A stretch of 63,304 bases of DNA, the filler included. It is 11 parts of 11 records of this genome, joined end to end, with 100 filler letters (N's around TTAATTAATTAA, not from the genome) between each part and the next. Parts side by side here need not be neighbours in the genome. Positions count along the whole stretch, not along the records: positions 12,695 to 17,658 come from SRR15195285_2701; 10 more parts are not named here. One strand, written 5' to 3'. A model generated the notes under the pieces. That model made no database searches. It saw only the letters and a program-made list of their open reading frames with translations, and was not told the DNA's origin. The position numbers and the translations under genes are program-made. How positions within the stretch are numbered: position 1 is the stretch's first letter; every line of letters begins with the position of its first letter. This document shows, in pieces, positions 8,419 through 47,758 of this stretch.

Positions 8419-8806
8419 GTGAGTATGCGTGAGCACGAGAGCGTTCCGACGGTACGCACGCCGCCAGCACGGTACCACACACACGCCAGCACGGTACGTA
8501 CGTACCGCGCACAGCCGCGGCCGGCGCACAGTAGATCTCGAGCCCGGCACGCACACGCGCGCGCACCGACGGCACGGCCGGCGACGACGGACGCGTGGCG
8601 CGCGCGCGCGCGCGCGCGCGCGACGATCCGCGCGTCGTCCGCGCGCCCGCGCGCGAGGGATGCGCGGAGTCAGCGGAGATGGCACGGATGCGTGCATTTT
8701 CATTCAAAAGTCACATACACCGAGAACACACAACCTGGGCACTGACCATCACTCCACACCCACGTCGATCGGCCGGCGCATTAAGCGCCGACCTCCAAGT
8801 GCATGC

Positions 8807-10345
8807 ATGGATGGGTGGACGTCGCCGGCGCCGCGCGGCGGTGCGCAGGCTCGCGCCTCGAGCTCGCTGACGGAATGGCGTCCGAGGAGGCAGGGAGGCA
8901 AGCGAAGCTTGAAGCGGACAAGAAGCGCGAAGATGCGAGGAATATTGACTACATGGAGTGAGTGGCTCACAACTCATGAATACATATGCTGTCACACTGC
9001 GCGAGCAAGGGCTTGCTTGCTCTGGATACGTATGCTCTACACGCAGCACTGCATGCACCCTAGCAGTGTTCGTTTTCGGCGCATGGACTGGTGTAGAGCA
9101 TGCGTATCTTCCTTCAGCCATGATGCAGGTCGCTTGTATCTGTGCATCTGCAGGTATGCTATGGGCATCTTGCCGTATGCCACGACTGCAGCGTTATCCT
9201 GGCCGCCACTCAGCAACTTCGCTCCAACCGATGTGCTCCTCGTCTTGATCTCCGTGTTCGCCCTTATGCCGTGGGCAGGGCTGCCCCCTGGTCTGACGCC
9301 AATCCTCGTGCTATGGCGCTTGCGCGGCTGGGTGCCACACCCGTGGGCAGCGAAGAAGCGAACGGTCCTGCAAACCGCCGTGCTGGTGCTGGTCAGTCCA
9401 ATCCTTATTCCCGCTGTCTTTGGCGCAGCGCTGTTGCTGTTTTGGCCGATCCATATGGACTACATGCGCTACCGTGAGTCGACGGGCGAGCAATTAGGAG
9501 GCACGGTGGCGGCTGCCGCCTCCGTTCAGAGAGGCGAAAAGCACGATTGGCGCAAGTGGCTGAACACTCGTTGGGTCGAAACCTTTGGATACACGGACGT
9601 CACGGACCCCAAGTTGGACATCCTAACGGCAGCAATCCAAGAAAACCCAGTGAGCTACCTCAGGATGTCCGTGCCCAGAAACAAGGCCAAAGGTGGCAAA
9701 GAGACCGGGACACAGCGGGGGCGGGGGCCGCGGGAATCTCCGCACGAGGAGGGCGAAATGACGCACATACTTCCCCAGCGAGAGGGAGAGCGCCCGCTGA
9801 TGCTCCGAGGTCAGCCCCATCGTCAGATCGATCAACTACCACCAAGTATCAACGACCCGGATTGGGCGCGCTTAAATGCTGGGCTCATGGCCTCTGTCTT
9901 CGGTACCACCTCGGACCATGCCGATGCCTCCACAGCCGACGTTAAACGAATGCCGTGGCTGATTTATCCTCCTCAGCGTACTGGATGTGGTGTTTTCCGG
10001 TCGGTTGACTCGCTGTACGAAGGCACAGGCGCTAAGTCGCTTCGCTTCACGCCTTCCTCGTTCTGCAAGTGCTGCGATGACGTGGTCGATCGAAAAGGCG
10101 AGTGGGCCCATGTGCATCGTCTCGATCGCAGCTGGCACGTATTGCTCTCACCCGCTGACACAGCTGCAGTTCTACAGTCAGGCTATGGCGAAATATGGCC
10201 CGTAGCTGCACTTGGGTGGGTGCCGGTCGGCTATGTCTTGATATACGCGCCGCGCAACCCAGAGGAGATTGAGGTCCTGCTGCGGATTCTTGAGGCGTCG
10301 TGGATGTACTGTGCGCACGAATGGGAAGGCTCTGGGCGAGAATGA
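8807..10345 (+). CDS. Membrane protein with C-terminal DUF5519/'Luciferase' family domain; 5' exon structure uncertain
   Basis: LPQREGERP...PHRQIDQ, GEWAHVHRLDRSWHVLLSPAD...GYGE.WP, VLIYAPRNPEEIEV..RILEAS. Hydrophobic segments precede the domain. Confidence 0.75.
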   Translation: MDGWTSPAPRGGAQARASSSLTEWRPRRQGGKRSLKRTRSAKMRGILTTWSEWLTTHEYICCHTARARACLLWIRMLYTQHCMHPSSVRFRRMDWCRACVSSFSHDAGRLYLCICRYAMGILPYATTAALSWPPLSNFAPTDVLLVLISVFALMPWAGLPPGLTPILVLWRLRGWVPHPWAAKKRTVLQTAVLVLVSPILIPAVFGAALLLFWPIHMDYMRYRESTGEQLGGTVAAAASVQRGEKHDWRKWLNTRWVETFGYTDVTDPKLDILTAAIQENPVSYLRMSVPRNKAKGGKETGTQRGRGPRESPHEEGEMTHILPQREGERPLMLRGQPHRQIDQLPPSINDPDWARLNAGLMASVFGTTSDHADASTADVKRMPWLIYPPQRTGCGVFRSVDSLYEGTGAKSLRFTPSSFCKCCDDVVDRKGEWAHVHRLDRSWHVLLSPADTAAVLQSGYGEIWPVAALGWVPVGYVLIYAPRNPEEIEVLLRILEASWMYCAHEWEGSGRE

Positions 10346-10405: not shown

Positions 10406-11842
10406 TCAGACCAGCGAGCGTGGTCCTGCTTCGCCGAGTCTTCCCACGCCGAGCAGCATCTCTCTCACACTCCGATTGAACATTGTTGCTGGAGGCAACA
10501 GAGTTGATAGCAGCTCGTGCCGCCGCCTGTTGCGATCAACGTTCGAAGCAGCTCGTCCCCCGCGTTCTGGTCCGTCTCCGCTGCGACGCGCAGGTTGCTC
10601 GTGCTCTGCAACCTGTCCGAACTCCATGTCAAGCCTCGCTTCTACCCACTGGTGGACACTTTCCGTCAGTCTGTCTGTTGGCACTGAAACTAGACCAGAG
10701 CTTAGCACTCGCGCCAGCAGGTTTGGTTCGAGCTCAAGGAAGCTCTTGTGCTGTACGATTGCCGAGAGGTAGGTGGTGCAGAAATCGCAGCAGGTCTGTT
10801 GAGGATTGCCGAGCAGGTCCTCGCGCTCTTCGGCGCCACTTGCGGAACCAGCTGCTCCATACAGGGTGTCAGCCAGCCGCCCAAGCGACGAGCTCTCCAC
10901 GACATTCCATAGTAAGCAAGCGGTTTCAACTGCCAGCGATTCGATTATCCAATCACCACACCGCTCGTGAAGAGCTGCGATGTCGAAGTAGTCCGCAAGC
11001 TCGACCACAAAACGCAGCTCTTGAACCGTTTCGATGGATATGATACCGGTATGGAGGAACTGATTCACGACCATAAAATTGTCACGATGGAAAGGAAGGC
11101 GCAGCTGGACAACACCTTCACTCGCTCTCATCGTCTCGTGCCACGTGCCACCGTTTAGCATTGCGCGAAAGAAGCCAGAACGGCAGCTCAAGATGGCACG
11201 ATTCCCTCGGCACACTAGTGGATCAAGCTGCCCAGAGGCTCCACTTGGCACGCTAGTCGCTTCGTCTGACTCGGGCTCTGGCTCCGGCTCCAGCTCCTTC
11301 AGGTCCGACATGGCAGGGGGAAGCTCGATCTGAATATCAAAGAACGTGTGGGTGTCTACATCATCCTCAAACGCTGCGAGTAGATCGTCACACAACGACA
11401 TCGTTTGCGATCGCGTCGCGCCGAGTCGTCCACCAGAATGCGCCGCCACATCCGGCGTCTTGTGGCCGTGCATTCCCAGCCCAGGAATTTCCCACGCCTG
11501 CGCGAGCTCCACTAGCTCACGCATCGTCTCGACTGGCAGCGGCTCATCGCGCCGCCGTGGTAGCTCGCCGCGGTACACCCACTGCAGCACAAGCTCGGCG
11601 GTAGATTGGCCAACCCCGTCTGGTAGCGGGACCTCCGTTCGCTTTTGCTCCTGCAGCGAGTGTTCTTGCCGCAGGCCAAGCTGCCCCCGCAGCGCGGGCA
11701 CGCGTGCCCACAGCACTCCTCGGTGAGCCCCCACGACAGCACCGACGCTCGTCGTCAGGGAGACGTCTGGGGGCGAGGGGGGCAGTCGCGATGAGATCAA
11801 AGTGCCGAGGTCAGCGGCGAGGCCAGCAGCACCACTGCTCAT
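10406..11842 (-). CDS. Tandem BTB/POZ and BACK-like domain protein
   Basis: AHRGVLWARVP...LVLQWVYRG and GNRAILSCRSGFFRAML...FLHTG...LADYFDIAALHERC, followed by a BACK-like SFLELEPNLL segment. Confidence 0.85.
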   Translation of the reverse strand: MSSGAAGLAADLGTLISSRLPPSPPDVSLTTSVGAVVGAHRGVLWARVPALRGQLGLRQEHSLQEQKRTEVPLPDGVGQSTAELVLQWVYRGELPRRRDEPLPVETMRELVELAQAWEIPGLGMHGHKTPDVAAHSGGRLGATRSQTMSLCDDLLAAFEDDVDTHTFFDIQIELPPAMSDLKELEPEPEPESDEATSVPSGASGQLDPLVCRGNRAILSCRSGFFRAMLNGGTWHETMRASEGVVQLRLPFHRDNFMVVNQFLHTGIISIETVQELRFVVELADYFDIAALHERCGDWIIESLAVETACLLWNVVESSSLGRLADTLYGAAGSASGAEEREDLLGNPQQTCCDFCTTYLSAIVQHKSFLELEPNLLARVLSSGLVSVPTDRLTESVHQWVEARLDMEFGQVAEHEQPARRSGDGPERGGRAASNVDRNRRRHELLSTLLPPATMFNRSVREMLLGVGRLGEAGPRSLV

Positions 11843-12378
11843 TGCGTGGGCGGCGCTTTAGTACCGTGGAATGCGCTCAGCGACGAAAATCGCCTCGACG
11901 AGCTGCTTCCGGTGCACGCGTCGACACGCACGCAGTCCCCGAGGGGTATCGATGCGTTCCGAATCGTTGAAACGCGTGCACCGCGCGACTCGCACGCGCG
12001 ACGCGACGCTCGCGCCGCGAGACGCACGCGCGCGACGACGCGACGACGCGCGCGCGCTCGCATCGCGCTCGGGAGTGCCCAGATTGGCTGCTGCACAGTA
12101 TACATGCTGAACATGGAGCTGAAGACTCGCATTAATGCGATGAACAGTAGGTCCACAATATGGAATCTTCTATATCAAAGTCGTAGTTCCGCACAAAACA
12201 GTCCCAGTTTCTGCGTGCTTCCTGTTCCCCGCGGCGCGCTCTCGCGTGCACATGCTGGCTGCTGGGCGGGGTTCGTCGCGCGCCCCAGAGCTAGTAGGGA
12301 CCCTACTAGCTCCCACTAGGTTACTACTGGCGAGCGCGTGAAGCGCAACTTATTGCGATCGGGAGTGGGACCGCCAGC

Positions 12379-12540: not shown

Positions 12541-12912
12541 GTGAGCGACCGCCGCCGTCTGTCCGTCTGTCCGTCTGTCTGTCTGTCTGTCTGTNNNNNN
12601 NNNNNNNNNNNNNNNNNNNNNNNNNNNNNNNNNNNNNNTTAATTAATTAANNNNNNNNNNNNNNNNNNNNNNNNNNNNNNNNNNNNNNNNNNNNAAGGAG
12701 AGGAGAATTAGATTCAGATTATACTATACTAATGTATATTATTAGGTAGATAGATATTTGGTTATTGATAGATACCTATTATATTGATAGATCCCCCCAA
12801 CATCTCAACATTAGGTATTTGACACATGACGATCCACTATGATTGTGTACGTTGTCGGTTGCCACCACTTGGGAGGGGTGAGCCCCTTGTGTATGATACA
12901 AGTAAATTACCT

Positions 12913-14355
12913 TCATGCTGAGCGAAAGCTACCGTGTGCCAGAAACAACCGCACGTCGGTGTATGTTGGCATCGATGCACCACCACCAGTGAAATCACCA
13001 CTAGTAGCAAGTTGCACGCGAATCTCATTGATGTTGAGTGGATTCCCACCCTGCTCGGCCACGGCAGCGCTCGCTGCCCGCACCGCCTCAACGCACGGTT
13101 CGCTGAGTTCTGGCAGTCGAGGTAGATCCAGGGGCAGTCCACTCGCCTGCGCATCGAGCAGGTAGCCCACAACCGTACTTGGACGGATGGCTTTCTGAGT
13201 CGCCACTGCCTCCACAGACAACCCCTTGTCCATGAAAAGTCGGTACGCCTCCTGTTTGCTGGGGCTATTTGGCAGAGGTATGCTCGCGACGTCCCCTACA
13301 AGTTCTGATGGGTTGGTCCGCCTCATCGCAGTCGCGGCGTCACCTGTTGCAAGCAGCGTGTCGAGGAACGCTTTTACCTACGCGCCGACACTCCACCCAA
13401 TGGCATTGTTTCAGTCACACCATATGGACCCACCGACAGCTAGTTGACTCGCGACAGTGTTAGTAGCCAAGACATGATTTAGAACGAGCATGATAGCCCG
13501 CGCATGGCGACTTACCCGTTCCTCGCACGTCGCCCACAGCTCCGGATCAAAGTGGAACTCCTTCTCCAGCGCCAAGCCATCGTAGTTCTCCACGTGCGTG
13601 CATCGTGACGAATCGATGGCGACACTCTCTGAGGTGCGCTGACCCTCCAGCAACCACATGTAGGCGCAGAGCTGTACCTCCTCGTACTTAGGAATCAGCC
13701 CGAATAGTCGGCGGCTGCGGTTCTTTGTCTCAACAATTCGTCCATCGGCGGCGATGCCGTCGACCTTGCCTCGCACTACGACGTCATACCCGGCGTGCGT
13801 AAACCACAGCTTCGAGTGCAGGACAGCATTCCGCTCTGTAACTGGCTGGCTGAAGCTGTCCAGTGCACCTGCCTCGAGCGCTGCGCCACGCTGCAGACGG
13901 ACGTCTGTAATCAGCTCCGCCTTGACGGCACGCAGTTCTGGACTCGCCGAAGTGAGCCGCAACACCTCCTCGTGGCTGTCGGACTCGCGCTTCTGCGCCA
14001 CGCTCGGGGCCACCACAGACTGTTGTAGAGCCGCCGATAGCACGGCTGCTGACGCTGTGGTTTCCAGCTGCTGCGACTCGGCCACTGCCGCCAGGACCGG
14101 TGCTGATAGAGCGTGCACCGCCTCCTCAACCCGAGTCGGGAACTGAGGTACCACCTGCCGTCCGAGCTGCTCCGCAAGCTGCATGTTCCGCTGCAAAAAC
14201 TTCTCCTCGGCCTCTCTCCTCTTCACGAATCGGTTGAGCCCTGCGATCTGCGCGATCTGGCTCGCGGCGATGTGGAGCACCGCTGGTGTCCGTGCGATGT
14301 CCGCACATGTAGAGCTGCTGCTGCGCCGGCAGCAGCGCAAAACTATCCGCCACAT
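12913..14355 (-). CDS. YqaJ/lambda-exonuclease-like PD-(D/E)XK nuclease fused to C-terminal HTH_40-like domain
   Basis: IAASQIAQIAGLNRF, RG..LE, GKVDG, VETKNR.RRLF..IP.YE.VQ..AYM. Phase-0 intron 13378-13515 (GTAAG..TAG) joins to SPSKQEAYRLFMDKGLSVEAVA...STVVGYLLDA, resembling the RecQ/WRN-type C-terminal HTH. Confidence 0.8.
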
Positions 14356-14622
14356 TACACTGTGTACACTGTACAGCTGTAGTGTGTACTGCGAGTGTCT
14401 CACATTTACGAATGGTGTAGATCTAGCCCGCCGCCCGTAGCAATTGATCCTGATTCGTGATTGCGCAAGGGGTTGAAACTTGAAAGGGCGCCGGCGCGCC
14501 CCATCGGCGCGACACGCGCCGCCCGGGGCCGCCGCCCTCCTGACCAGGCCTTGTGCACGTGTTGATGGTGGGACGTGGGCAAAGCGTGGCGGCTGTTGAG
14601 GGCACGCGTACACTACGAGAGC

Positions 14623-15545
14623 ATGCTGCGCGCCCTATGCGGGACGCTGCCGAGACGGCCCGACCAGCAGAGGCCTCTGCAGGTCGCGATGCTGCGACAT
14701 GGCGCACGCGCTTCTGCTCCGCCCACGTCCCGACTGTGTGGACGGCCGATCTTGCGGCACCAGGCGGCAACGGCAGCGCGTACTGCGCGGCGCGCGTGGG
14801 TGCCAGTGCTCATCCCTGGTGACGACGACATCATGCGCACGAAGTTCGGCGGGCGGCCGTACATTCCGCAGGGCCGCGAGTGGCCGCTGTGCCCTGTTTC
14901 CGGGGATCCGCTGCTGTTCCTGTGCCAGCTCGTGGCACGTGATTCACCCCTGGCAACGAAGGACCCGGACACGATGCTGCAGTTCTTCGCGCGAGCGGAT
15001 GCAACGGCGGTGCGCGATGACACTCACGGAAACGTGCTCGCGAGGGCGGTGTGCGCCCCTGATCGGTGCCCTGCTCCGCCGAACGCTGTCATTCCACCAG
15101 CTGCAACGCTGCTTGAGTCTGCCACGGTCTCGTGCTGGGACGAGCACAGCGACTATCCCGATCGCGAAGAGCCGGAGGTTGCTAGCGCGCTCCCTGCCGA
15201 TGACAGCGGTGAAGGCGATGCCTGCGTGGAGCGCCTCCATCCGGCCAGCGGAATCAAAGTTGGTGGCTGGCCGTATTGGGTGCGCGTCACTCGCGGCAGC
15301 CTAGCAAACCGCCTACTGCCACCTCTTGCCCTCTGTTGACCTCGCCGCCGGCCCGTCGCACACAGATTCAGGCTTGTCGACGGCCGCACTGCGATGAATG
15401 TGGTCGCGAGATGGACATCGTGTTATTGCAGCTGGATTCGCGCGATCCGGTTTTCCGGGGCTGTTTTGGGGACGGTGGCATTGCCCACATCTTCCAGTGT
15501 CACGACCACCCTAAGCACTTCCAGTTGCACTGGCAGTGCATGTAG
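14623..15545 (+). CDS. DUF1963/YwqG-like protein
   Basis: TKFGGRPY...WP.CP..G.PL.FLCQL. Intron 15280-15365 gives KVGGWPYW|IQ...C.ECG..M..LLQLDS...FGDGGIAHIF...WQC. Start codon uncertain. Confidence 0.82.
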
Positions 15546-15815
15546 CTCGTCGCTACCTCCGGCGATCTAACTAGTGGTCGCGGATAGAGCAGAGCTGCAG
15601 CGTGCACGGGACTGGAATAAACGAAGACTTGTTGCGTTAGCTGTTGAGTCAGGGCACACATACCCACTTGTGTCGTTCCTCCCCGGCCGACAGCTGCTTG
15701 CGTGCACAAGTTCCCACCGGCGCTCATGGTGATGGCGTGCGCTCTACCAACGACCCTAGACCTTTTCACTTGTCTGCATTGGTACGCGTTCATCCCTCTC
15801 ACGGAAAATCGACCC

Positions 15816-17168
15816 TCATGACGCCGTCGAAAATGAACCACGATATTCGTGGTCATCATAAGGCAGTCGATTCTGGAGTATCTCGCTGATCCTAGATTCG
15901 AGCTTGCGGGATCTGGCTACACCGATTTTCTCTTTCCAGTGGTCGTCGCGGCGGAAGTGGTCGAGCTTGGTATATCCGTCGCACGTCAACTGTTCTACAG
16001 TACTCTTGCCAATGCCATCAATCTTTCCAAGGGACCACACGTGATCAGCCGCGAGCCTATTGCAGAAATCTACATGCGACCCTTCAGTCTGTAGCCATAG
16101 CCGTAGAAGATGATCGGCAAGGGCCTCGTTGGTGGCTGGCCTCTGGTGTTTTTTGAAAGCATCTCTGTCAATCTCCGATTCCGTCTGTTGATGTAGCTCT
16201 TTCCCGTGTCCACCTCCCTGATGCACGCGCCTGGGCATCAGCGTTACTACTCCCGTGGAATGCCCGAGATCACGCTGACCGTTGTGATGCCAATCATATC
16301 CTTCGGGGTTTTTCCCGTCCGATAGGCGTAGGTAATCCGCGGGGGTGACTTCAGTGATGAAATTCTCGTGAAACCGAACTTCCCAGGTTAAGCCGTCGTG
16401 CGAGGCTGCGAGGCGTGCCGCGTGCTTGCCTTCTAGATGGTCACAGCCCCGAGAGCCGACGCCGAATCGGTCCCTGCTGGAACGGTGCTCGTCAGATACT
16501 CTATCGGGGTCGTCTGGATCCAGCACCTCGGTTGGCTTGTGCGTAAGCTGGTATTTTTGGAACATGAGAAGGTGCAGCTCGTGCCTCCCCACCTGCCGCT
16601 GCGCGCCGCCCGGCAGCTCGATTGTGTGGCAGACCAGCGGTTCGGCGGCGTGGTCAATGTGCGCGATTTTGACGATGACCTTTGGCTGGCGATCATACCG
16701 GCTTACTTTCTCGTCGCAGTAGGCGACGACGGAGCCGACGTCGAACACGTTGGTGGTGGTCGACTGCGTGGGCTGCGCCGCGCTCCTGTCCAGTTCTGGC
16801 TCACCCTCAACTAGCTCGCCCGCCGGCTCCGGCTCCGGCTCCGAGGCTGGCGCCGGTCGCAACGTTACCACTCCAGCAAGCGCGGTGCCACCCGTCTGAA
16901 GCAGCGGGCTCGATGAGGGGTTGTGCCGGCGGCCACGCGCCCGAGGCGACGACCGGCGCCTGGCTCGATTCTTCGTCGCGTGGACAAGCGGGGCCGCCGC
17001 ACAGAGCTCCATGCCGGCCGACGCTGCGGCTGACATGGGAGGCGCCATGCACAGCGTACTCGCATGGCGGCCCACTTGTGGCGGCAGGCCCTTCGGCAGT
17101 GGTGCCACGACCTCTGGCAGAGGCATGACGGCCCGGAGCCGTGGAGGAGACCTCGCCACGGCGCGCAT
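15816..17168 (-). CDS. Protein with SH3/Tudor-like segment, WHH-type HNH/EndoVII nuclease motif and C-terminal helix-hairpin-helix; start uncertain
   Basis: GKNPEGYDWHH...GVVTLMPRRVH...H, then LGKIDGIGKSTVEQL...KIGVARSRKL. Upstream FDVGSVVAY...HTIELPGG.QRQV. Confidence 0.65.
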   Translation of the reverse strand: MRAVARSPPRLRAVMPLPEVVAPLPKGLPPQVGRHASTLCMAPPMSAAASAGMELCAAAPLVHATKNRARRRSSPRARGRRHNPSSSPLLQTGGTALAGVVTLRPAPASEPEPEPAGELVEGEPELDRSAAQPTQSTTTNVFDVGSVVAYCDEKVSRYDRQPKVIVKIAHIDHAAEPLVCHTIELPGGAQRQVGRHELHLLMFQKYQLTHKPTEVLDPDDPDRVSDEHRSSRDRFGVGSRGCDHLEGKHAARLAASHDGLTWEVRFHENFITEVTPADYLRLSDGKNPEGYDWHHNGQRDLGHSTGVVTLMPRRVHQGGGHGKELHQQTESEIDRDAFKKHQRPATNEALADHLLRLWLQTEGSHVDFCNRLAADHVWSLGKIDGIGKSTVEQLTCDGYTKLDHFRRDDHWKEKIGVARSRKLESRISEILQNRLPYDDHEYRGSFSTAS

Positions 17169-17829
17169 CTTGCAGAACCAGTATCACCGCGGGCCGCGCT
17201 GCTGGGCTCGCTGCTGACCTTCCGGTGCTCCTCCCAACGCGAGGAGGCCTTCGGCGCACCATGCCATGGGGCCTCGCCATCGTGGCGCCCTTTGAGCTTT
17301 GGCAAGTGAGTCGCCATCGACATCGCCGCCACCCGGCTTGTACATACGTACTGTTGCATCTTGCATACTAATTACTAGATCTAGATCTAGTACTATCCCG
17401 TAATTGACCCGGTTCTTTCCCCCTAATAGGGGGGAAAGAACAATTGAGCTTGGCGCGCCGGGCTAGCCACCACAACTGCCGCTCAGGGCTATCTGCGGGT
17501 CCACTGGACCAAGGTTGTGCTAGCAAGGTGTGGTGTGGGTGGTGGTGGCGCTACCACATGGGCTAGCGTGGCCACAAGGAGGGTAAACAGGGGTGGTGCC
17601 CCAACATAGGCAATATGCGAATCAATCACTCCGCAGTCAGTCAGTGCCATGCATTCAGNNNNNNNNNNNNNNNNNNNNNNNNNNNNNNNNNNNNNNNNNN
17701 NNTTAATTAATTAANNNNNNNNNNNNNNNNNNNNNNNNNNNNNNNNNNNNNNNNNNNNGGTGCTGCTGGTGCTGGTGCTGCTGCTGCTCGCTGCTGCTGC
17801 TGCTAGTGCTAAGTGTCGCTACTAGCGGG

Positions 17830-23720: not shown

Positions 23721-26700
23721 ATGGGCGGCTCGTCCGACGACGAGTTCTCGAACCCCGTGGCTGAATCCGGGATGTTCGAGAGCGAAACGACGGGAGACCC
23801 GGCCGACGAACGAAAACCGGACTCCGAGAACCCCGACGACTGGGGAGACCTGGGGCTCGGCGGTATCGTCAGGGGTGACGTGGACGAGTTCATCCTGAAC
23901 TGGTGCAAGAATGCTTGCGCGTCGTCTTGGCTGGATGCGACAATTCTCATCTGCATCATCTTCAACACGTTTCTGCTCGCGTACGCCGGCCCGGCCAACA
24001 CGTACTCAGAGGACGTCCTGACGGCCATGATGATCGCCGATTTGGTACTCACGCTCATTTTCAGCATCGAGATGTTCATCCGCATCATCGCCCTTGGCTT
24101 CTACGACCGCACGGGAGAGCTTCCAGTGCCCAGATACATGAACGAGTGCGCCGCCACAGTCCCTCCGCTCGTATGCTGTTGCTGCAGCTAGCTCTCTTAC
24201 GAATTTGTTCTCGCAGCGACTGGAACAAAATGGACTTTTTCGTTGTCATCTCATCGTGGGTGAATATCGTGGTGGAAGTCACCGGAGTGGAGCTCGGCGT
24301 CTCGATGTCCAGCCTGCGCGCGCTCCGCATCATGCGTGTGCTCAAGGCATTCAAAAGTATCGAGGGCATTCGCGTGATTCTAGCGACGCTTGCGGCAGCT
24401 GTCCCGCACACAGGCAATGTCGTGGGGTTCCTTGGGTTCATGTTTGTCGTGTCGGGGATCATCGGCGTGCAGATGTTCCGCGGCCTGACGCGGAACCGAT
24501 GCGCGTACAGCAGCTTCGACTTGATGGGCCAGCTCGGAGAGGACCGTTTCCCGATGGCCGACCACGGAGAGCTTGGGCCGTGGGACACTGCCAACGCCAC
24601 CGGATACATCAGCCACATTGAGGTTGGAATGGCCACGATAGTGGACGAGCCCGCACCGGGTCCTTTCCCTTCCGTCTTTGAGCCATCTTACGAGTACCCG
24701 ATCGGAATTGGTGTTTGGGGCACGTATTGCAACTTGGATTCCGACTGTCCGCTGTACAACGCGCGCGATAAATGGAATCGGACTCAGACCTGCCAACCTT
24801 CGCTCAATCCGGGAAAGACATTCTCGAACTACGACTCATCGCCGGAAGCCTGGATCACCATATTCATCAATATGGCCTGCCTTTACTGGTGGGAGACAGC
24901 GCATCGCTACGTGGACTCGAACTCTGGTCACGTGCCGTTCTGCACGGGCACTCCCGAGGAGCTGGACCTCTATCCAACGTGCGAAGGAGCTTTTTGGGAG
25001 GCGACTGGCGGAGACCCTTCCAGCAGCACTTTCTTGGACTGCCCAGACGGTTGCAGGTACCGCACTGGAGGGCCTGGATCGATAATTGCATGGGCGTTTG
25101 GCGCTTTCAACGTGGTACGTGAATCACGTCTGCCAGTGCCTTTCCCCCCCCGTCCCCCCCGCCCTCCACCTGTGCTGGATAAAGACTCGAACTGGCTGAG
25201 CACGGTCGGGTGCTGCGCAGTTCATGCTGACAATGGTGACGGTTAACATGTTTGTTGCCGCTGTAACCACCATTTTCATGGACCAACGCTCCGTTGAAAA
25301 CCCCGACGGTGCTGCAGTGGCACCGCCGCGGACGCCAAAGCAACTTAAGGAGGACGAGCAGGCCGCCGCGTGGACAAAGCCGTTCTATTATGTAGAAGCT
25401 TTTGGAGGCGAAGGACCATATGTGGAACCAAAACGGAACGAGCTAGGTGATATCAAAGCCGTCCTTGCTGAAGCTGAGGAAGAAGAGGCAAAATGGCCGG
25501 GCTCACGCGCTACCGATATCCCCAAGATTCAGCTCAAGGTTGACGAAAAAATTCAAGAAATCATTAATGCTGGCGGGAGTGACCGCACAGAAGAGGGTGC
25601 AGCGCCCCCTGAGGTGCGCAAGGGAATTATCAACCAACCTTGGTTCGACCAATTCATTCTAGCATTCATCATGATCAACACGGTTGCCCTAGCTTCCGAG
25701 CACCACGACCGCGAGCAGTGCATTCCGATGCAGCTGTCGGCATTCGAAGAATGGGGTCACGTGGGCCGCGAGCCATCCCTTCACGGAATGATGGAGGACG
25801 GTTCAGAGCTTTGCCAGAGTCCCGATTTCATTTTCACGATGAAAATCGCAAACTATATCTTCAACTTCGTGTTCACCGTGGAATGCATTCTCAAGATCTT
25901 TGGCATGGGTTTCAGAGAGTACATTCGAGTAGCGTTCAACAAGTTGGACTTTTTCATCGTCGTCACTTCAGCTCTGGACATGATTGGTGAGGCTCTCGCT
26001 GATCCAGGTGAAGCGTCCGGTGGTGGTATTTTCAAGCTCTTTCGCGTGTTTCGTCTCTTCCGTGTGCTTCGTGTCGCCCGTATCCTGTACCGCAACGAGA
26101 ATCTGAAGCGAGTTCTCGTGACGGTGTTTGGAAGCGGAGAGTCGCTGGTGAACTTGACACTTTTCATCGCGTTTTCTATTCTATTGTTCTCCATTCTCGG
26201 CATGCACCTGATCAGTGGATTCTACATACCAACAAACATCACTCCAGCGTCTCCATACGGCAGCAACAACGGAACACTATGGGGCAGGCTGATGGGCGAC
26301 GGCGTGTACGATGTTCGAAAGGAGGGCGCAGAGGTCCGTTACGGCTACGATGTCCAGGATTTCATCATGAAAGGATTGATCCCACGCCGCAACTTCGAGG
26401 ACTTCCCGAGAGCATTCTTGCTATCGTTCCAGATCATGACAGGTGACGATTGGGTAAACCAGATGCACGATTACCTGGAGGTCCGACCAGGATGGATCAC
26501 CTGGTTCATCTTCTTCGCTAACTTTGGCTTCTGCAACTTCATCCTTCTTTCTCTTTTCATTGCCGTAATTCTGGAGAACTTTGAAGTCGCCGAGGCAGAG
26601 AAGATGAAACTGCAGGCGAACATGCGTGAAACAAAAATGCGGAAGGCCGAAGAGAAGGCCAAGAAGCCCAAAATCTTCTTTCCGCATCGTCTTGTTTGGC

Positions 26701-29700
26701 TATGCGGCGGCACAAAGGCTGGGAAGCGGGAAAAATCTCTCTGTGGCATTGGTCCAGATGTTGAGGTATACGTGTCGGAACCCTTTGACCTAGATGATCC
26801 GAAGAACGGAATGCTCGTCCCAGGCGAGCAATGGTACAATGATGATAAGTCGATCTTTACATTCGGTCCCGGACACCCTGTGCGAGTTAGCATGAAGGCA
26901 CTTGCCAACAACATCATCTTCGACAATATTGTGCTCGCTGCAATCATTATTGGTACGATCTTGCTAGCCGTGGAAGGACCACCGGGATCCCTCCCTCCAG
27001 AGACTCTGTACCTCTTCAATCGCGTCAACGACGTCCTCTTCCTCGTGTTCTTAGTGGAGTTCGTCTCGAAGGTTGTTGGATACGGGTTCATGTTTACTCC
27101 TGAAAGCTACTTGAAGAACATGTGGAATCGTCTTGATTTCATTGTGATTGTCGGTACCATCCTGAACTACCTCGGAGCCAACGCTGGATTCGTTCGATTG
27201 CTGCGTTGTCTACGGCCCCTGCGGATCATCAACCGCAACGAAGGCATGCGCGTTATCATCAGTGCTGTTGTGGATAGCCTTGCCGTCAACGTCGGTGTGC
27301 TGGCTCTCTCTGGCCTGGGACTGCTGATATTCGGTATCCTGGGCGTCAGTCTTTTCGCAGGAAAGATGTGGTCTTGCAACTGCTCGCACGTGTATCCTGA
27401 GGGAGTAACTCCAGCTACAGCAATATTTGGAGACGACGGTGGCTGGCTCAACATCACGGCTCGTGTGGCCCCGATGGATGCCTCTTGCTCCGGAGTTGCT
27501 ACTAACGCAGTAGCAACGCCAGATTGCAGCAATGTTCCGACGTTTGTAGCAGATCCGACAGCAGTCAACTGCCCTGCGGGCTGCGTATTCACTGACATGG
27601 TACCGGCAGTCGAACCATTGTACAACACTACACTCCCACTGCCAGTTGAAACAGAGCAAATGTGCATAGGAGCAAACCAACAAGGGGGGGTCTTCGGCAT
27701 TGACCCGACGTTGCCAGATGCAATTTCTGAATGCTACTGGGACAACAGGCCGTACAACTTTGACCATGTTGGAAGCGCCATGATGTCCTTGTTTACTGCT
27801 TCTACTCTGGCTGGCTGGACAGACATAATGGAGATAGGCATGGACCAGGGGGGGATCGGCTACCAGCCAGTTCCGTTCAAGAGCGCTGGTTACGCAGTTT
27901 TCTTCATGTTCTATGTCCTCATCATGGCGTTCTTCGTAACGAACTTGTTTATTGGTGTCCTGATTGATTTCATAGGGACCAACGACGGTAGTGCGCTGCT
28001 AACTGAAGATCAGCAGAAAATGGGCGACACGATGAAATATGCGAAGCTCCATCGGCCGGAGCTGGTTGCCACAGCGCCACCAAATCCCGTTCGCAAGTGG
28101 TGCTGGGGTCTGGTTGAATCGAAATGCTGGGAACTCACAAGCAATTCTGTGATAGTGTTCAATGTGGTGGTCATGATGTGCGAATACGAAGACCAGTCGG
28201 AGGAATGGTGGCTAGCCCTAGAGTTCTTGAACCTCGTCTGCCTGACGTTTTTCTTTGTAGAGATGTGCTTCAAGATTATCGCTTACTTTCCAGTGGAGTA
28301 CATTAAGGACCGGTGGAACCAGTTTGATTTCATAGTTGTCAATCTATCTGTCGCTGGAATCATCTTTGACATGGGCGGGGCGCAGGCGATCCGTGCGATG
28401 CGTGCAATTCGAATTGTGGTTGTGCTGAAGGGTGCAAAGGGCATCCGATCGCTCCTCCAAACCCTCGCACTCAGTGTAGCTCCAGGTGTCAACATTTCGG
28501 TTCTCCTATTCCTGCTGTATGCAGTTTACGCGATCCTGGGGATGATGTATTTTGGTAACACACCAATGCAAGACGTAGAGTGCATGGTTGAGCAGCACCA
28601 AAGTGATGTCGGGAGGTACTTGGTCAAGGATTCTGTTGCCAACTACTGCAAGATCGGTATGGCCAGAGAATCCTGCACAGCATCAGTCAACCCGTTCTAC
28701 GCACTCGGCTGGGGTGAAGAACTGATAGACCCTAATGTCAACTGCACTGATGGATACATCGAGGGCACCTCGACGCAGCCATCAACGACGTGCAAAGACG
28801 GCTGCACCTTGGTGGTTTCTACGTACGTCGACCGCACCTCGTGGTTTTCACATTTCGCCAAGGGCAGGCCAGGGCAGATGCTGATGGGACTGAACAGACA
28901 GTACACCCACCATGCACACTTCCACGATTTTCCATCTGCATTGAAGCTATTGTTTCAGTGTGCCACTGGTCAAGACTGGAAGTTTGTGATGTACGCGGTC
29001 GGTGGTGAGCCGGGACAACCTGGGGCCGCGGTGCGCATCATTGCTTGTGCCTTTGCGCCTTACAGTCTAGGTTTGGTAGTTCAAGCTAACTAGGTGCTTG
29101 GCGAGGGTTGACTTCGTAATGTTTAGTTAGCCAGATTCTCAAGTGGTTAAATATTCAGTAGCTTAGCCAGAGCCTCAATTGTTGATCAGTGAACTACCTA
29201 ATCTCGCTCAAACCGAGCTCACTGCGCGTGTCTCATATGTCTGGTGGACCGACACATCTCGACTACCTTAAATGGTTTTTGATAGATGGTACCGTCACAG
29301 TTGCGTTCAGTCCGTTAGAAACTACAGTTGGATTCGTTGCAACGCTCACATGCGGTGTCGATGGCAGGCACCAACCGCGTTCATATACTTTGGGACGTTT
29401 TTCTTCTTCTCGAACTACATCTTGCTGAATCTGTTCGTCGCGGTTATCCTGGACAATTTCTCTGCATCTATGCGTGAGTCGGAGTTGAACGTGAGCGAAG
29501 AAGACTTCGTGGACTTCAAATTCAAATTCCGGCTCAAAACCACCGACGCACAGCCGGAGATGCTGATGTTCCTGGACTTGTTCAGCCTTTTGGAAGACAT
29601 CGGAGGCGACGAGACTCCAGATGAAAAGGGGGAAGTAACCAATGTCAATGCAATGGCCCCGCCGAGATGGACGTACTGGAGCCAAGACAACGAGATGGCG

Positions 29701-30845
29701 TGGGCTTTACACTGCGAGTCTGGGGTATCACCTGCGGATATCAAAAAGTTCTTGAAAGGAGTGTACACAGCTGCCAACTCCCCATTCAAGATTGAGGGTC
29801 AGCCTGGGATCTCATTCAATGAGTGGTACAACACATTGCTCGAGACCCCTGCGGTTTTCGAAAGTGCACGGCAAGGGGACCTAGGCACGCTGCAGGACTG
29901 GGAAAAGTTTCGAAAGGACAACAAGACGGCCAGGATTCCACCGTACGCTGTCATCAAGGAAGCTTGCAAAGCATTGCGATTCAATGTACACTATCAACAT
30001 CTCGTGGACGAACTTAGTTTCCATGGGGCCGAATACAGTGGCGAAGGCAGTGAGCTCAAGTATGACCAGGTTCTGCAAGGATTGGTCAACGTTGAGATGG
30101 GCGAGGCAGCACTCAGCCTTGAGGAGCAGCTGCACAGAGGGTAAGCCTCCGAGCGTCTCATTGATCATGTTGTGCGTGCACTGACTGTTTGCATTTACGT
30201 GCACTGCCTCGCAGCGTTGCATCGATGGGCTTCGCGTCCGATACCGCACAGGCGGATGCAGAGCTAGCGGAGCTGGTGGAGACTGAGAAGCAGTGGCAAC
30301 AAAAACTGGAATATGCTACGATGAACCCGAGCACGACAGCTCAGGAGCTACGACAGCTCGAGGATCAGCTGAAGCGGATAGCCATGGCGAGAGAAGAACT
30401 AGAGGAGCGTGTCAAAGAGAACCACGAACATGACGATGACCCAGAGGAAGAAGAGGAAGCAGTGAGCCATGCTGCACAAGCGCATTGGTCTATGCAGCTC
30501 CAGATATTCATGTTTTGCTTGCTGGCTTGCTTGCTTGCGCAGCGGCAGCTGACTGATCAGGAAATCGCGGAGAAAGAGCGAGACGATGCCCGTGCCCTCG
30601 CTGAAGCGCTGAAGACGCAGCTCAAAGTAGCGGTGCGACCCCGCCACACGCTTTGCTTGATTGCCAGGGCTGTATTCACGCGTATCGTGGCTGATTCAGA
30701 CATAGCGATTTTCTGGCCACTGATCTAATCGATGTGCATGCACAATCAACAGGCGGATCAAGCTGCTGAGGCTCAAGCGGAAATGCTGAAGCAGCAAAAA
30801 AAGTACGAGCAAGAAATTGCCGACCTTAAGGCACGGGCGACTTGA
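23721..30845 (+). CDS. Four-domain voltage-gated cation channel alpha subunit (Cav/Nav/NALCN superfamily)
   Basis: Four 6-TM repeats with WN.(L/M/F)DF motifs and S4 helices (LRALRIMRVLK, FRVFRLFRVLRVAR, VRLLRCLRPLR, IRAMRAIR); S6 NLFVAVILDNF. Introns 24146-24216, 25115-25220, 29031-29367, 30141-30214, 30462-30542 and 30633-30752. Confidence 0.95.
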
Positions 30846-37731: not shown

Positions 37732-37873
37732 CGGTTTGGGCGCTGTGTGTGTGTGAAGTGCTTGTGCTTGTGNNNNNNNNNNNNNNNNNNNNNNNNNNNN
37801 NNNNNNNNNNNNNNNNTTAATTAATTAANNNNNNNNNNNNNNNNNNNNNNNNNNNNNNNNNNNNNNNNNNNNT

Positions 37874-40800
37874 GTGAACGGCCCAGAGGTGCAGGAGTCA
37901 TCACAGAAACAGGAGCGGGAGCGTGGCGCCACTGCTGCAGGTGGCGATCTCTCCGCCACCCACTCACGTACTGTGACCGGTTCGAACACAGCGGATCCTG
38001 ACTCATTTGCGATCAAGACGAGGAAAAGTCTTGGGCTCCACCACTCGAATTCCAACACGCTTGCGCTTCCGCCATGCACGGTCTGGATCGGTAACTTGCC
38101 ACGTGAGATCGCGAGCAACAGCAAGCTCAAAGGCTTCATCGAACAGAAGTTCGGCGATGTGGAGACCGTCACGGTGCGTGAGAAGGAGTCTCCAGAGCGC
38201 TCGTGGGCCTTTCTTACGTTTGTCGAGCCGGATTCCATGACAGCGTGCATGGAAGCTACGACATCTGTATACGACAACTACCTCGGCAAGGCAGTGGAAC
38301 TCAGTGTGCGCCTCCCGTGGAGTCAGGACCACCAAAGCTCGAATGGCGGGGGAGCATCGGGAGCGATGAAGAGAATTGCGCGGGAGCACAAAACGCGCAG
38401 GCGGTGGGCAGCCGTAGGTGGGTCAGTAGCGGGTCGCAACAAGCCGAAGCTCGTATCACACTTCGGATCTCACCGGGGGCTTGGTGAGATGATGATGGAG
38501 AGCCACCGGCGGCAGCAGGCAGAACATCGGAAATGCTTCTTCATGCCGCAGAGAACTTTTCGCGCGGTCTGGGACGCGAACCAGGTGGTGATCTTGCTGT
38601 ACGTCGCGCTAGCGTACCCAGTTCGGGCAGCGATGGAGTACGACCCGGAGGTAGGTTCGTGGATGATGATTTTGGACATTGTCATTGACTCGTGGTTCCT
38701 GCTTGACATCATCATCAACTTTCGGACTGCTTACAAAAATGAAGAGGACGAAACCATTGTTGTGGACCTGAAGAAGATCGCACATCGCTACGTCTGTGGT
38801 TTTAGGTCGGGTGGTGGATGGTTTTTCGTGGATCTGATCAGTTCCCTGCCAATTCAATACATTGCGCTGATTGGTGGTGGTGATGAAGGTAAAGAGTCCG
38901 GGGTGCAGATACGACTGTTTAAGGTCCTAAGGCTGCTTCGCCTGGCAAGGCTACTTCGGTTGATCAGGATACGCGCACTGACGCGGGAGTACGAAGATAC
39001 TGCACTCTTTGACGTATTCGAAAGCCTGAAGCTTGTGCATATGACATTTCTCATAATGTGGATGGCTCACATTGCAGCTTGCGTCTGGTAAGAGTTGACC
39101 AACTCTTTCTCACAAACGCGTCAAAATCTACCTGCTGACTAGCTTTATCGGCTTTTCTTGTACTGCGTTGGCGTGAAGCATTTCGCTAGCTCTAGAGAAG
39201 CTAATCTGCGGATAGTTGCTCACTACTAGTACCCTGGGATGGTAGGTACTACGTGGGCACAGTAGACCAGACTGTTGCAACTACTGATGGTGGCAACGAG
39301 ACTATCTTCGGGTGGGTGCATACTGAGTACGGTCCGGACAGTGGAAACGTACGCAGTGAAGACAGGTTTCGCGCGTATCTGATGGCCCTACATGCCGTGA
39401 ACCCGAAGATGTATGACCTGAATGATGCCGTTTCTGGAGATTTCACAACGTGGATGTTATTAGTATCGGTGGTATTGGAGACACTCGGGCTGGTGAGTTG
39501 TGAATGTGTTGTGCTGCGTTGTCGCCTCTATATGCGACAGCGTCCTAGACCTACTGATTGCTCGCTACTGGTTTGCAGGTGGGATTTGGTGTCGTCATCG
39601 GCAGTTTGTCTACGTACATTTCGAGTGGCAAGCAGGAGCAGGTTAAATACAAGCAGAAAATGGATACCCTGCACGATTTCTTCCGTGCTAAAGATGTGCC
39701 TTTTGAACTCCGCAAGAACGTGCGTTTATTCTACGATAATCTGCTGCGCAAAAAGACTGTGTTTGACGAGGGAGAGATCATTGCAAGTCTGCCCCCGGCC
39801 CTGGCCAATGATGTCATCTACACGCTGTACTCAGAAACAATCACAAACACACCCATGTTCATCGGGCTGGAAGTGGAGGTCGTGGCTAAGTTGTGCATGA
39901 AGCTCACCCCGTTCCATGCTCTGTCGGGCACAATAATCAGTCAAGAGGGCCACCAAGGCACAGAGGTTTACATTGTGCAAAAAGGCGAGGTGCTCATCAG
40001 TCGCGGTGGGTCTCATTTGGCTGTGATCGGGCCAGGCTCCTCGTTCGGAGAAATGTCTGCCTTAGGGTTCTCGCAAGGGAAGAATGGAAACAAACGTGAC
40101 AAAACTGCCACAGCTATCACAGAGACTGATTTAGTCTTCATCACTGGAGAGCAGCTGTACGACCTAATGGAAGACTATGACTCGCTGCGCATTTCGCTCA
40201 GAAACGTGGTCGAGAAGAGGATGAAAGACAGGCGCAAAACTCGGCGGAAGTCAGCTGAAGGCAAAAGCCTGAAAAACGACAAGCTTGCTATGGCGCGGAA
40301 GAACGCTGCCCATTACGAAGCATCTAATGACGTGACCCGCAGAGGTGAGGCTTTGTCGTCATTAGAACAGTTGCAGGCCGACTTGACACGAAATGCAAAC
40401 CACGCCCTGTCGGGAAAAGACCTATTTGCGCAAGGCCTTGCCGTGACGACCAGCAATGATGAGGAGGATGGTCAGAGCGACTTATCAGCCGCTGTGCTCG
40501 AGGGTCACGGAGGTCAAACTGTTGAGCCGGCGACAGCTCAGAGTGTCATTCCGAGACAAGGCGTCGCGCCAGGAGTCACTAGCAGCAATGGTGCAGAGAT
40601 GACCGAGATACTCTACAATATCGATCGAAAGCTCAATACACTTGTGCAAGAGCAGAGCGTGTTGACACATCGTGTTGCCGAGATGGAGCATTCGATGACA
40701 AACGCTGACACGGCTAAAGGTTTCACTCCGATGTCACCTAAATTTAATCTAGCGGGATGTGCTCGTAAGTTGATGGGGAGTTCGGCAAATCGGACCCTTT

Positions 40801-40922
40801 CTAGTCTCCCAGGTATAGCAGGCGGAATGGGCCTCTCAGATGGGCTGAATAGAGACACTAGTGACGACGACGAGCTACCTGATAGTTCAAGTTCTCAAGT
40901 TCAATTTTCCCTCCCCAAATGA
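37874..40922 (+). CDS. 6-TM CNBD-family channel with N-terminal RRM and non-canonical pore
   Basis: RRM (TVWIGNLP...KFGDV...SWAFLTF), FR.VWD, DIIINFRTAY, WFFVDLISSLP, S4 RLFKVLRLLRLARLLR, C-linker, GSSFGEM. Introns 39088-39245 and 39493-39578. Confidence 0.88.
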
Positions 40923-47400: not shown

Positions 47401-47758
47401 AAGTCGCTACCAGACTAGCCGATGACGTGGGGACAATAAAACAGGGGATGCGTGCGCTGTTGGATCATCATAACGAGGGCTGGATCGAGACCGAGTCGAA
47501 GGACACCAAAAGTGAGTCTTCCGCCTGCACGCTCGCCCGCACCCACACGCACACGCAACCACAGTGCCTACCTTCCTCTCGTACCTCTGAACACCTGTGC
47601 GTTGATCTACTTTGCTAGCATCAACGACACCAATGAACAAGAATCTTGGTTTTCTCCCTACGCAAAGCGCCGAGGCTACACGTGGCACGTTTGAACACGA
47701 GTCAACATTGCCACGTGGATCGAAATCGCCACGTGGATCGAAATCGAAGAAGCAGTAA
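44450..47758 (+). CDS. KCNH/HCN-like K+ channel with four EF-hand loops and a degenerate CNBD
   Basis: YLDAMYWSLTTMTTIGYGDRGP filter; S4 LKILRLARAGR; EF loops DYNDDGVVDNEE, DESGDGRLDREE, DREDNGSVDFSE and DGDGDGVVSHEE. Introns 44548-44685, 45047-45131, 45163-45231 and 47512-47618. Start may lie further upstream. Confidence 0.9.
47710..47745 (+). repeat. 18-bp tandem duplication (GCCACGTGGATCGAAATC x2), encoding PRGSKS twice
   Basis: Direct reading of the sequence. Confidence 0.9.

Follow-up and report, generated by a model that had tools for sequence, protein, structure and literature searches.

A picozoan contig of 4,964 nt (positions 12695-17658, bounded by N-linkers) within the window, the 63,304-nucleotide stretch of DNA analyzed here, carries three genes, encoding a fusion of a YqaJ-type exonuclease with HTH_40 (gene 1), a DUF1963/TYPP protein (gene 2), and an HNH nuclease (gene 3). 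All three are real genes. The overall reading that we favor, and to which we give about an even chance, is that genes 2 and 3 form an old pair, that the exonuclease gene is unrelated to them, and that gene 3 encodes a predicted intracellular DNase acting against foreign DNA. In our best reading, the product of gene 3 is a DNase that has been domesticated, acts within the cell, and evolves under conflict, and gene 2 is a linked neighbor of unproven role.

The original prediction had placed the contig in a protist, and the host is indeed picozoan, with relatives of genes 2 and 3 on EukProt Picozoa COSAG02 NODE_226. Two nucleases were expected to flank the DUF1963 gene across spacers of about 270 bp, and the measured distances are 267 bp on the head-to-head side, counted from ATG 14623, and 270 bp on the tail-to-tail side; introns are present in genes 1 and 2 while gene 3 is a single exon, in agreement with the expected two of three (Table 1). 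Domain searches likewise agree that each gene carries a domain of prokaryotic or viral appearance, and by sequence the three are of differing affinity: giant-virus, bacterial, and bacterial toxin, respectively. The tail-to-tail spacer is spanned by an independent DNA contig (15269-16066, 5 differences), and no further gene was recognized on the contig. Run X2 has zero cover at 15185-16015 with both flanks covered, and GC3 drops to 0.50-0.60 over the 3' part of gene 3 (its second half), within or slightly under the window range of 0.56-0.73; neither observation was given weight as evidence. Synonymous and nonsynonymous counts at the 56 displayed variant sites were uninformative, PDB sequence searches returned no significant match, and the nine loci matched in a metagenome scan were discarded as spurious because the query translation ran into an intron.

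Table 1. Features of the three-gene contig, in window coordinates.
Feature	Coordinates	Strand	Remarks
Gene 1 exon 2, HTH_40 domain	12913..13377	-	profile match
Gene 1 intron, 138 nt	13378..13515	-	GTAAGT..TAG; missing in some relatives
Gene 1 exon 1, 280 codons, YqaJ/lambda-exonuclease-type PD-(D/E)XK	13516..14355	-	motifs GKVDG...VETK...Q intact
Head-to-head spacer, genes 1/2	14356..14688		267 bp to ATG 14623, 333 bp to ATG 14689
Gene 2 exon 1, presequence-like leader rich in Arg and free of acidic residues, followed by DUF1963/TYPP	14689..15279	+	GGxP of both repeats
Block that one relative carries in a much more diverged form	~14950..16570		protein identities only
Gene 2 intron, 86 nt	15280..15365	+	GT..AG; splice in 1 RNA contig (4 RNA runs)
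Gene 2 exon 2	15366..15545	+	conserved Q, CxxC, FGDxGxxHIxQC = end of second TYPP repeat
Tail-to-tail spacer, genes 2/3	15546..15815		270 bp
Gene 3, one exon, 450 aa	15816..17168	-	low-complexity N-terminus, barrel, WHH/LHH-type HNH nuclease, HhH/SAM-like domain
Gene 3 HhH/SAM-like helical domain, residues 373-435	15864..16052	-	
Gene 3 His-Me nuclease, residues 255-345	16134..16406	-	W293-H294-H295, Q298, H316, E324-L325-H326
Gene 3 barrel, residues 141-205, SH3/Tudor/chromo-barrel-like	16554..16748	-	weak fold matches, low-confidence model

Gene 3 is predicted from its sequence to be a catalytically active His-Me finger (HNH) nuclease. The Pfam WHH profile matched it at E 0.009 and 16.2 bits (gathering score 25.1), with the best relative reaching 21.6 bits, but profile-profile comparison by hhalign upheld the WHH assignment (95.7%, E 1e-8 over 52 columns to bacterial WHH, versus 35.5% and E 4e-4 to LHH), and the four histidines, an HH dyad and two more, are kept without exception in all 14 relatives aligned. 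The tripeptide, leucine, and histidine of Tox-WHH (PF14414) are present as W293-H294-H295, L310, and H316, although the tryptophan is tyrosine in one cluster of relatives. The C-terminal HxG(G) of that family is absent: gene 3 has HGK, in which the histidine varies among relatives, and its invariant C-terminal histidine lies instead in ELH. From Tox-LHH (PF14411) it has the HH dyad, the later H and LH, and the SxIxR..F extension, with the best relative scoring 22.7 bits, under the LHH cut-off of 23.3, but it lacks the tripeptide (having WHH), the upstream N, and the E before the helix. The gene had been described as WHH-HhH; the WHH-type nuclease and HhH-like domain stand, but the nuclease proves to be a hybrid of WHH and LHH and is accompanied by an additional barrel. 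The nuclease tree, with its long branches, did not separate WHH from LHH ancestry.

A model of the nuclease domain (pLDDT 78) places strands at model positions 57-61 and 73-78 followed by a helix, forming a beta-beta-alpha core. Its top match in a viral library was an LHH protein (rmsd 2.4 over 93 columns, E 0.052), a match with some circularity, since the model alignment itself contained LHH rows, and Foldseek searches of the PDB with the full-length and domain models returned nothing at E<=0.001. The barrel was called from the full-length model, whose mean pLDDT is 38, and a related domain is also found on an unrelated rhomboid protein. Relatives are rare: 8 representatives among 1.84 billion matched gene 3 at E<=0.001, and the nuclease domain reached only E 1 and E 0.2 against plasmids and phages. 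No Pfam secretion or toxin-delivery domain was detected in the protein or in the 11 relatives scanned, and presequence-like composition is weak (background 18% for gene 1 and 14% for gene 3). None of the searches backed a passing resemblance to plant CBP60.

Gene 2 begins on the plus strand at 14689, or at an additional upstream in-frame ATG at 14623, runs to 15279, and resumes at 15366..15545. It matches DUF1963 (PF09234) at E 6e-9 and 36.9 bits (cut-off 23), and after splicing both repeats carry the GGxP and Q of TYPP/DUF1963 proteins, as GGRP/LCQ and GGWP/IQ. Homology of all 11 picozoan-type DUF1963 relatives is broken or interrupted at the intron codon. Presequence-like composition is clearer here (background 3%) than in genes 1 and 3, suggesting that the protein is possibly mitochondrial.

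Gene 1 (14355..13516 joined to 13377..12913, minus strand) encodes 434 aa. Its profile scores were above the cut-off for PDDEXK_1 (E 1.3e-4) and below it for YqaJ (E 1.4e-3), with HTH_40 at E 2.6e-8, and the D, ExK, and Q of YqaJ/lambda exonucleases are present as GKVDG, VETK, and VQL. The lambda-exonuclease family has a characteristic fold and forms a ring-shaped trimer. The intron junction is read through as a single ORF in relatives P0011 and P0012, and ~141 nt are missing at this site in one DNA contig; no spliced form was found among the RNA contigs, and one RNA-library contig carried the intron unspliced. HTH_40 is absent from all 76 viral relatives examined, a motif-selected set since only a degenerate motif, not tblastn, reached these proteins: four scans of viral contigs with the three window proteins gave no relative, and neither did a tblastn search of phage records with gene 1. 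The product is most likely an HTH-fused 5'-3' exonuclease of a kind that giant viruses also have, which would serve DNA recombination or repair.

The conservation of the gene order among relatives differs between the two junctions. On COSAG02 NODE_226, the third gene is a DUF1963 relative (81%) and the fifth a nuclease relative (79%). Overall, 9 of 31 nuclease records have a DUF1963 record on an equal-sized contig, against a null mean of 0.32 and 8-11 expected under adjacency; one of these pairs was matched by contig name and eight are inferred from equal contig sizes among protein records, and the null is one of chance matches and not a genome-wide gene-order baseline for Picozoa. The comparison used the longest contig per protein and, for one DUF1963 cluster, covered 15 of its 20 entries. 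The pair recurs down to ~45% identity; 8 of 16 DUF1963 contigs of at least 2.2 kb had no matching nuclease record, nor did the nuclease cluster that includes COSAG06 match a DUF1963 record. Genes 2 and 3 are likely an old linked pair in picozoan relatives. The synteny expected across all three genes did not extend to gene 1: none of 27 YqaJ records lay on a contig equal in size to that of a DUF1963 record (7-10 expected under adjacency) or of a nuclease record (0/27), and none of 28 cluster members was named from COSAG02. Gene 1 probably lies beside the pair without being related to it. A negative result of this kind could also arise if assemblies break within the head-to-head spacer, which is GC-rich.

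The proposed co-occurrence of bacterial DUF1963 with toxins failed to appear. WHH/LHH toxins were absent from the 148 neighbors of related DUF1963 genes, DUF1963 was absent from 29 bacterial LHH/WHH toxin loci, none of six canonical YwqG loci adjoined such a toxin, and YqaJ was not found at 102 bacterial DUF1963 loci; in this motif-selected set, DUF1963 genes have no steady neighbors. The immunity proteins listed for WHH/LHH toxins in PMC3482391 are SUKH, Imm28, and Imm37. None of these adjoins gene 3, whose neighbor is the DUF1963 gene on the opposite strand.

One version of the pair is mosaic. P0086/P0093 match gene 3 at 89% identity over residues 25-140, with a 7-residue insertion in common, but at 43% over the nuclease and 33% over the HhH part. 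In P0084, the DUF1963 protein linked to this nuclease, identity starts at 97% and declines to 43% on approaching the junction, while seven YqaJ relatives diverge evenly. This single version is present in both ENA and NCBI records (two nuclease records). Polymorphic toxins combine a constant N-terminus with an exchanged C-terminal nuclease; here the exchanged part is a homologue and not another toxin family. Introgression or conversion by a paralogue could also give rise to such mosaicism.

It is possible, though we think it doubtful, that the contig is an ordinary neighborhood of separately acquired housekeeping genes (repair nucleases and a chaperone), with genes 2 and 3 linked by the plain microsynteny of compact genomes and the mosaic version a one-off introgression or conversion allele. 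The three-way difference in affinity would suit this, as would the inconstant neighbors of bacterial DUF1963, the ordinary eukaryotic genes in the remainder of the window, and the absence of repeats or mobile-element ends from the contig, and HhH and barrel domains are as compatible with repair as with defense. However, the pair has been kept across deep divergence when the other neighbor apparently has not, and the catalytic domain of P0086/P0093 diverges far beyond the low-complexity N-terminus, the opposite of housekeeping behavior. WHH and LHH domains are, moreover, described as largely confined to toxin systems (PMC3482391).

The suspected toxin/immunity link between genes 2 and 3 keeps the recurring pair and a mosaic, conflict-like pattern in its favor, but no bacterial precedent was found. 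We regard it as unlikely that Picozoa possess a two-gene toxin-antidote, anti-viral, or self/non-self locus in which a toxic nuclease of bacterial toxin type is bound and restrained by a TYPP chaperone, the two 3' halves passing on together as a matched haplotype among deeply divergent ones kept for a long time. The conserved tail-to-tail arrangement and the joint divergence of both genes of one relative, in records from both databases, are consistent with such a locus, and TYPP domains have been proposed as peptide-binding or chaperone-complex modules (PMC4275035). Yet linkage alone would suffice for joint divergence, the listed immunity proteins do not include TYPP, and the presequence-like leader may mean another compartment. 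The original reading, which unites the three genes in a single domesticated module for DNA degradation or toxin immunity, seems very improbable: the compact arrangement and two nucleases with intact motifs speak for it, but differing origins, viral versus bacterial, and the lack of any sign of YqaJ-DUF1963 linkage, in relatives or in bacteria, leave it unsupported.

Under the preferred reading of gene 3 as a domesticated DNase, we infer that its His-Me domain may have been taken from a bacterial polymorphic toxin with loss of the delivery parts, and that it gained the barrel and HhH-like domain, whose binding to chromatin or DNA would direct the nuclease. It would likely be used against foreign DNA inside the cell, and its fast mosaic divergence may reflect conflict with viruses or selfish DNA; much viral DNA is reported from Picozoa cells (PMC7541821). 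The TYPP protein is most likely a protein-binding chaperone, joined to the nuclease by tight linkage and not its shown inhibitor.

WHH and LHH nucleases are catalogued as the tips of bacterial toxins (PMC3482391). A family from Picozoa, a lineage that lies near the red algae and for which we know of no defenses, would exemplify toxin domestication, given its intact catalytic residues, its new accessory domains, and its mosaic allele. Were the toxin-antidote or anti-viral locus true, a bacterial-type DUF1963 protein would gain its first partner, and eukaryotes their first working WHH/LHH nuclease system. The recurring link also offers a concrete and cheap test for DUF1963, a domain for which we know of no bacterial function. 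The literature searched gave no description of this picozoan nuclease family; the supplement of PMC4275035, which concerns YwqG-family eukaryotes and neighborhoods, may bear on its novelty.

Among known systems, gene 3 most resembles the Tox-WHH and Tox-LHH HNH/EndoVII nucleases found in bacterial polymorphic toxins (Zhang et al. 2011, PMC3113570; 2012, PMC3482391), sharing the HH dyad and two later histidines, the WHH tripeptide and upstream G-x-x-P-x-G-Y stretch of the former, and the LH...S-x-I-x-R-x-x-F extension of the latter. It differs in its eukaryotic host and in a hybrid signature matching neither family completely; on our reading of its columns, a 2017 census (PMC5714182) gives 0 eukaryotic WHH sequences and 1 LHH. 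Unlike in bacterial toxins, the nuclease domain is internal, between the barrel and HhH-like domain, and has neither a delivery domain nor a SUKH neighbor. Gene 2 belongs with the TYPP superfamily (Burroughs and Aravind 2014, PMC4275035), whose named references are B. subtilis YwqG (PDB 1PV5) and eukaryotic TSR4/PDCD2: it has two GGxP+Q repeats, the second with CxxC, and is ~30% identical to a widespread bacterial DUF1963 subfamily. In contrast to known members, the picozoan copies form one long-branch group with a common intron position and an Arg-rich leader, lack the MYND insert, and, unlike their bacterial relatives, are linked to a nuclease gene. Gene 1 is closest to giant-virus YqaJ-like exonucleases (PF09588), collinear with exon 1, which are 260-aa proteins on viral contigs, several labelled as giant-virus MAGs (GVMAG), and are 27-29% identical over ~270 residues, helical insert included, a likeness for which transfer may have run in either direction. 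Compared with these viral proteins, gene 1 has an HTH_40 fusion, a variable intron, and an N-terminal leader.

The window consists of contigs strung together by N-linkers, and one of them, at 12695-17658, contains three genes, which lie where the original prediction placed them and are intact, with their catalytic motifs: a YqaJ-type exonuclease (gene 1), a DUF1963 protein (gene 2) and a WHH/LHH-type nuclease (gene 3). RNA-library contigs overlap parts of all three, which alone is no proof of transcription. The gene 2 intron is spliced out in one RNA contig. The gene 1 splice has no RNA support, one RNA-library contig running across the intron unspliced; relatives read across the same point as one ORF, and a DNA contig is about 141 nt shorter there, both of which support the splice. 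Some relatives have this intron and others lack it, and P0015, a database relative, seems to carry an in-frame intron elsewhere, pointing to intron turnover in Picozoa. Within 17169-17658, one relative matches from 17391 on and differs before it (loose ends, two runs), showing that sequence upstream of gene 3 varies as well.

Positions of the three genes and the gene 1 intron in the window
Feature	Coordinates	Strand	Description
Gene 1	14355..12913	minus	One 138-nt intron; 434-aa product
Gene 1 intron	13378-13515	minus	138 nt
Gene 2	14623 or 14689..15545	plus	DUF1963; 86-nt intron
Gene 3	17168..15816	minus	Single exon; 450 aa

The host is a picozoan. Ordinary eukaryotic genes are found on other contigs of the window. 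The named close relatives of genes 2 and 3 are from EukProt Picozoa COSAG02 (81% and 79%), and the cluster of the 75% relative of gene 1 includes a EukProt Picozoa member from COSAG03 (Picomonas judraskeda). The Picozoa relatives appear single-exon because, as described in PMC8599508, these assemblies were annotated with Prodigal. Elsewhere in the window, several genes on three contigs (23879-30144, 37829-40922 and 45108-47618) encode ion channels, in which Ion_trans comes with cNMP or EF-hand domains, and an ORF at 8423-10345 includes a luciferase-like domain (PF17648) of the bacterial/fungal kind.

Of the proposed toxin/immunity-like or anti-viral module of three genes, relatives show signs of linkage for genes 2 and 3 but not for gene 1. 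A second named contig, COSAG02 NODE_226, carries the pair, with a DUF1963 relative as its gene 3 and a nuclease relative as its gene 5. For unnamed records (the matches listed, a part of the clusters), linkage was inferred indirectly, from equal size of each record's longest listed contig: 9 of 31 nuclease records, against a null mean of 0.32, have a counterpart of equal size among 40 DUF1963 records, but none of 27 YqaJ records does, where adjacency would give roughly 8-11 and 7-10 matches, respectively. One of the matched sizes, 5,386 nt, is shared by relatives with about 45-50% (DUF1963) and 35-38% (nuclease) identity. The tail-to-tail spacer is bridged by an independent DNA contig from a near-identical strain. 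Linkage of YqaJ could be hidden by assembly breaks in the GC-rich head-to-head spacer. A module of all three genes seems to us very improbable, and gene 1 would be a separate exonuclease. Its PD-(D/E)XK/YqaJ nuclease is collinear with 260-aa viral-contig proteins, several labelled as giant-virus MAGs, the best match reaching 29% over 275 residues, and its HTH_40 domain was found in none of 76 extracted viral ORFs.

A toxin-antidote relationship between genes 2 and 3 would be in keeping with their linkage, but the bacterial co-occurrence of DUF1963 and WHH toxins that the prediction put forward as a check was not borne out, and we consider this reading unlikely. The picozoan nuclease profile, sensitive enough to pick up LHH and WHH domains of bacteria (E 2e-7), had no match in 102 genome loci picked by a motif from gene 2 exon 2 (best E 1.1), 98 of which encode DUF1963. 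LHH, WHH and YqaJ were absent from the 148 immediate neighbours scanned (of 154), which include one WGR-SMI1/KNR4 protein, and DUF1963 lay within 1.5 kb of none of 29 toxin loci. Among 301 genomes of one phylum, LHH occurs in 2, DUF1963 in 12 and both in none; among 136 genomes of one family, 4 have DUF1963 with an LHH or WHH match, never less than 1 Mb apart on one contig. In B. subtilis, ywqG presumably adjoins ywqH. Around six canonical YwqG loci, neither LXG nor HNH turned up in the 35 neighbouring ORFs scanned out of 51; a YxiJ-like gene lies near one and a Fic gene near one. Tandem DUF1963 copies occur at three marine cyanobacterial loci (L152, L165 and L174), as described for the YwqG family. 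The available text of a polymorphic-toxin survey does not mention DUF1963 (PMC3482391), and that of PMC4275035 makes no immunity claim for it, grouping it with TSR4 and PDCD2 in the TYPP superfamily and proposing a chaperone-like role.

Gene 2 would be a linked chaperone-like protein and a putative partner of gene 3. The picozoan DUF1963 copies group together and share about 30% identity with a bacterial subfamily that is widespread. At the codon where gene 2 has its intron, each of the 11 relatives breaks or is interrupted, so the gene must have been in this lineage for a long time. Of 40 residues of its leader, counted from the ATG at 14689, 8 are basic and none is acidic, a composition matched by 3% of background frames, from which we would guess at mitochondrial targeting.

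Gene 3 has four histidines (H294, H295, H316 and H326) that do not vary across 14 aligned sequences, the most distant at 25% identity; they occupy the positions to which metal binding and water activation are ascribed in WHH, LHH and AHH domains (PMC3113570). A model of residues 235-435 (pLDDT 78) has an LHH protein as its top viral-library match, LHH rows being present in the input alignment. Its C-terminal domain is HhH/SAM-like, with a middling score (Z 7.6 and rmsd 1.8 over 57 residues), and residues 141-205 weakly resemble an SH3/Tudor/chromo barrel. No delivery domain was found in the protein or the relatives scanned. When 1.84 billion representatives were searched by profile, 8 proteins matched, among them one whose cluster has a COSAG06 member, a rhomboid sharing only the barrel, and P0092. 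The rhomboid protease (P0091 cluster, 12 members) is headed by a gene 3-type barrel, which in these protists may therefore be a small domain that is mobile. P0092, on a 6.2-kb contig, has an LHH-like domain, a hydrophobic N-terminus and a long Ser/Thr/Pro tail, and may represent a second non-bacterial LHH lineage. An EPEPEP-coding stretch within gene 3 (16822-16857) has very high metagenome depth and recurs in a BTB gene (10406-11857); it is a low-complexity element that is common in genomes of this type.

A mosaic relative exists. In their N-terminal part, the nuclease relatives P0086 and P0093 are the closest to gene 3, with 89% identity across residues 25-140 and a shared 7-residue insertion. 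Yet they drop to 43% in the nuclease region and to 33% in the HhH region, while four other relatives reach 82-89% and 67-77% there. P0084, the DUF1963 record matched to this nuclease by equal longest-contig size, falls from 97% and 90% identity to gene 2 at the start to 43% in the last exon 1 segment (close relatives, 78-86%), which is also the most variable segment across all relatives. These drops indicate a block of about 1.6 kb at the tail-to-tail junction in two very different versions, for which balancing selection, introgression or paralogue conversion could each account. The YqaJ relatives diverge evenly along their length.

Plain microsynteny of genes with housekeeping roles would also be compatible with recurrence of the pair, and we hold it possible but less likely. 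The reading we prefer, to which we give about an even chance, is that gene 3 would be a toxin-derived DNase that stays in the cell, is directed to its target by the barrel and the HhH-like domain, and evolves in a setting of conflict, with gene 2 linked and gene 1 apart. Viral DNA, which Picozoa cells contain in quantity (9 of 9 cells in the account of PMC7541821), would be the most plausible opponent. The first half of the gene 3 nuclease resembles bacterial WHH (hhalign 95.7%, E 1e-8; its WHH domain match is sub-threshold), and the second half has an LHH-type LH...SEI.R..F extension (35.5%, E 4e-4). Gene 3 carries neither signature in full, and the host is new for these known domain families.
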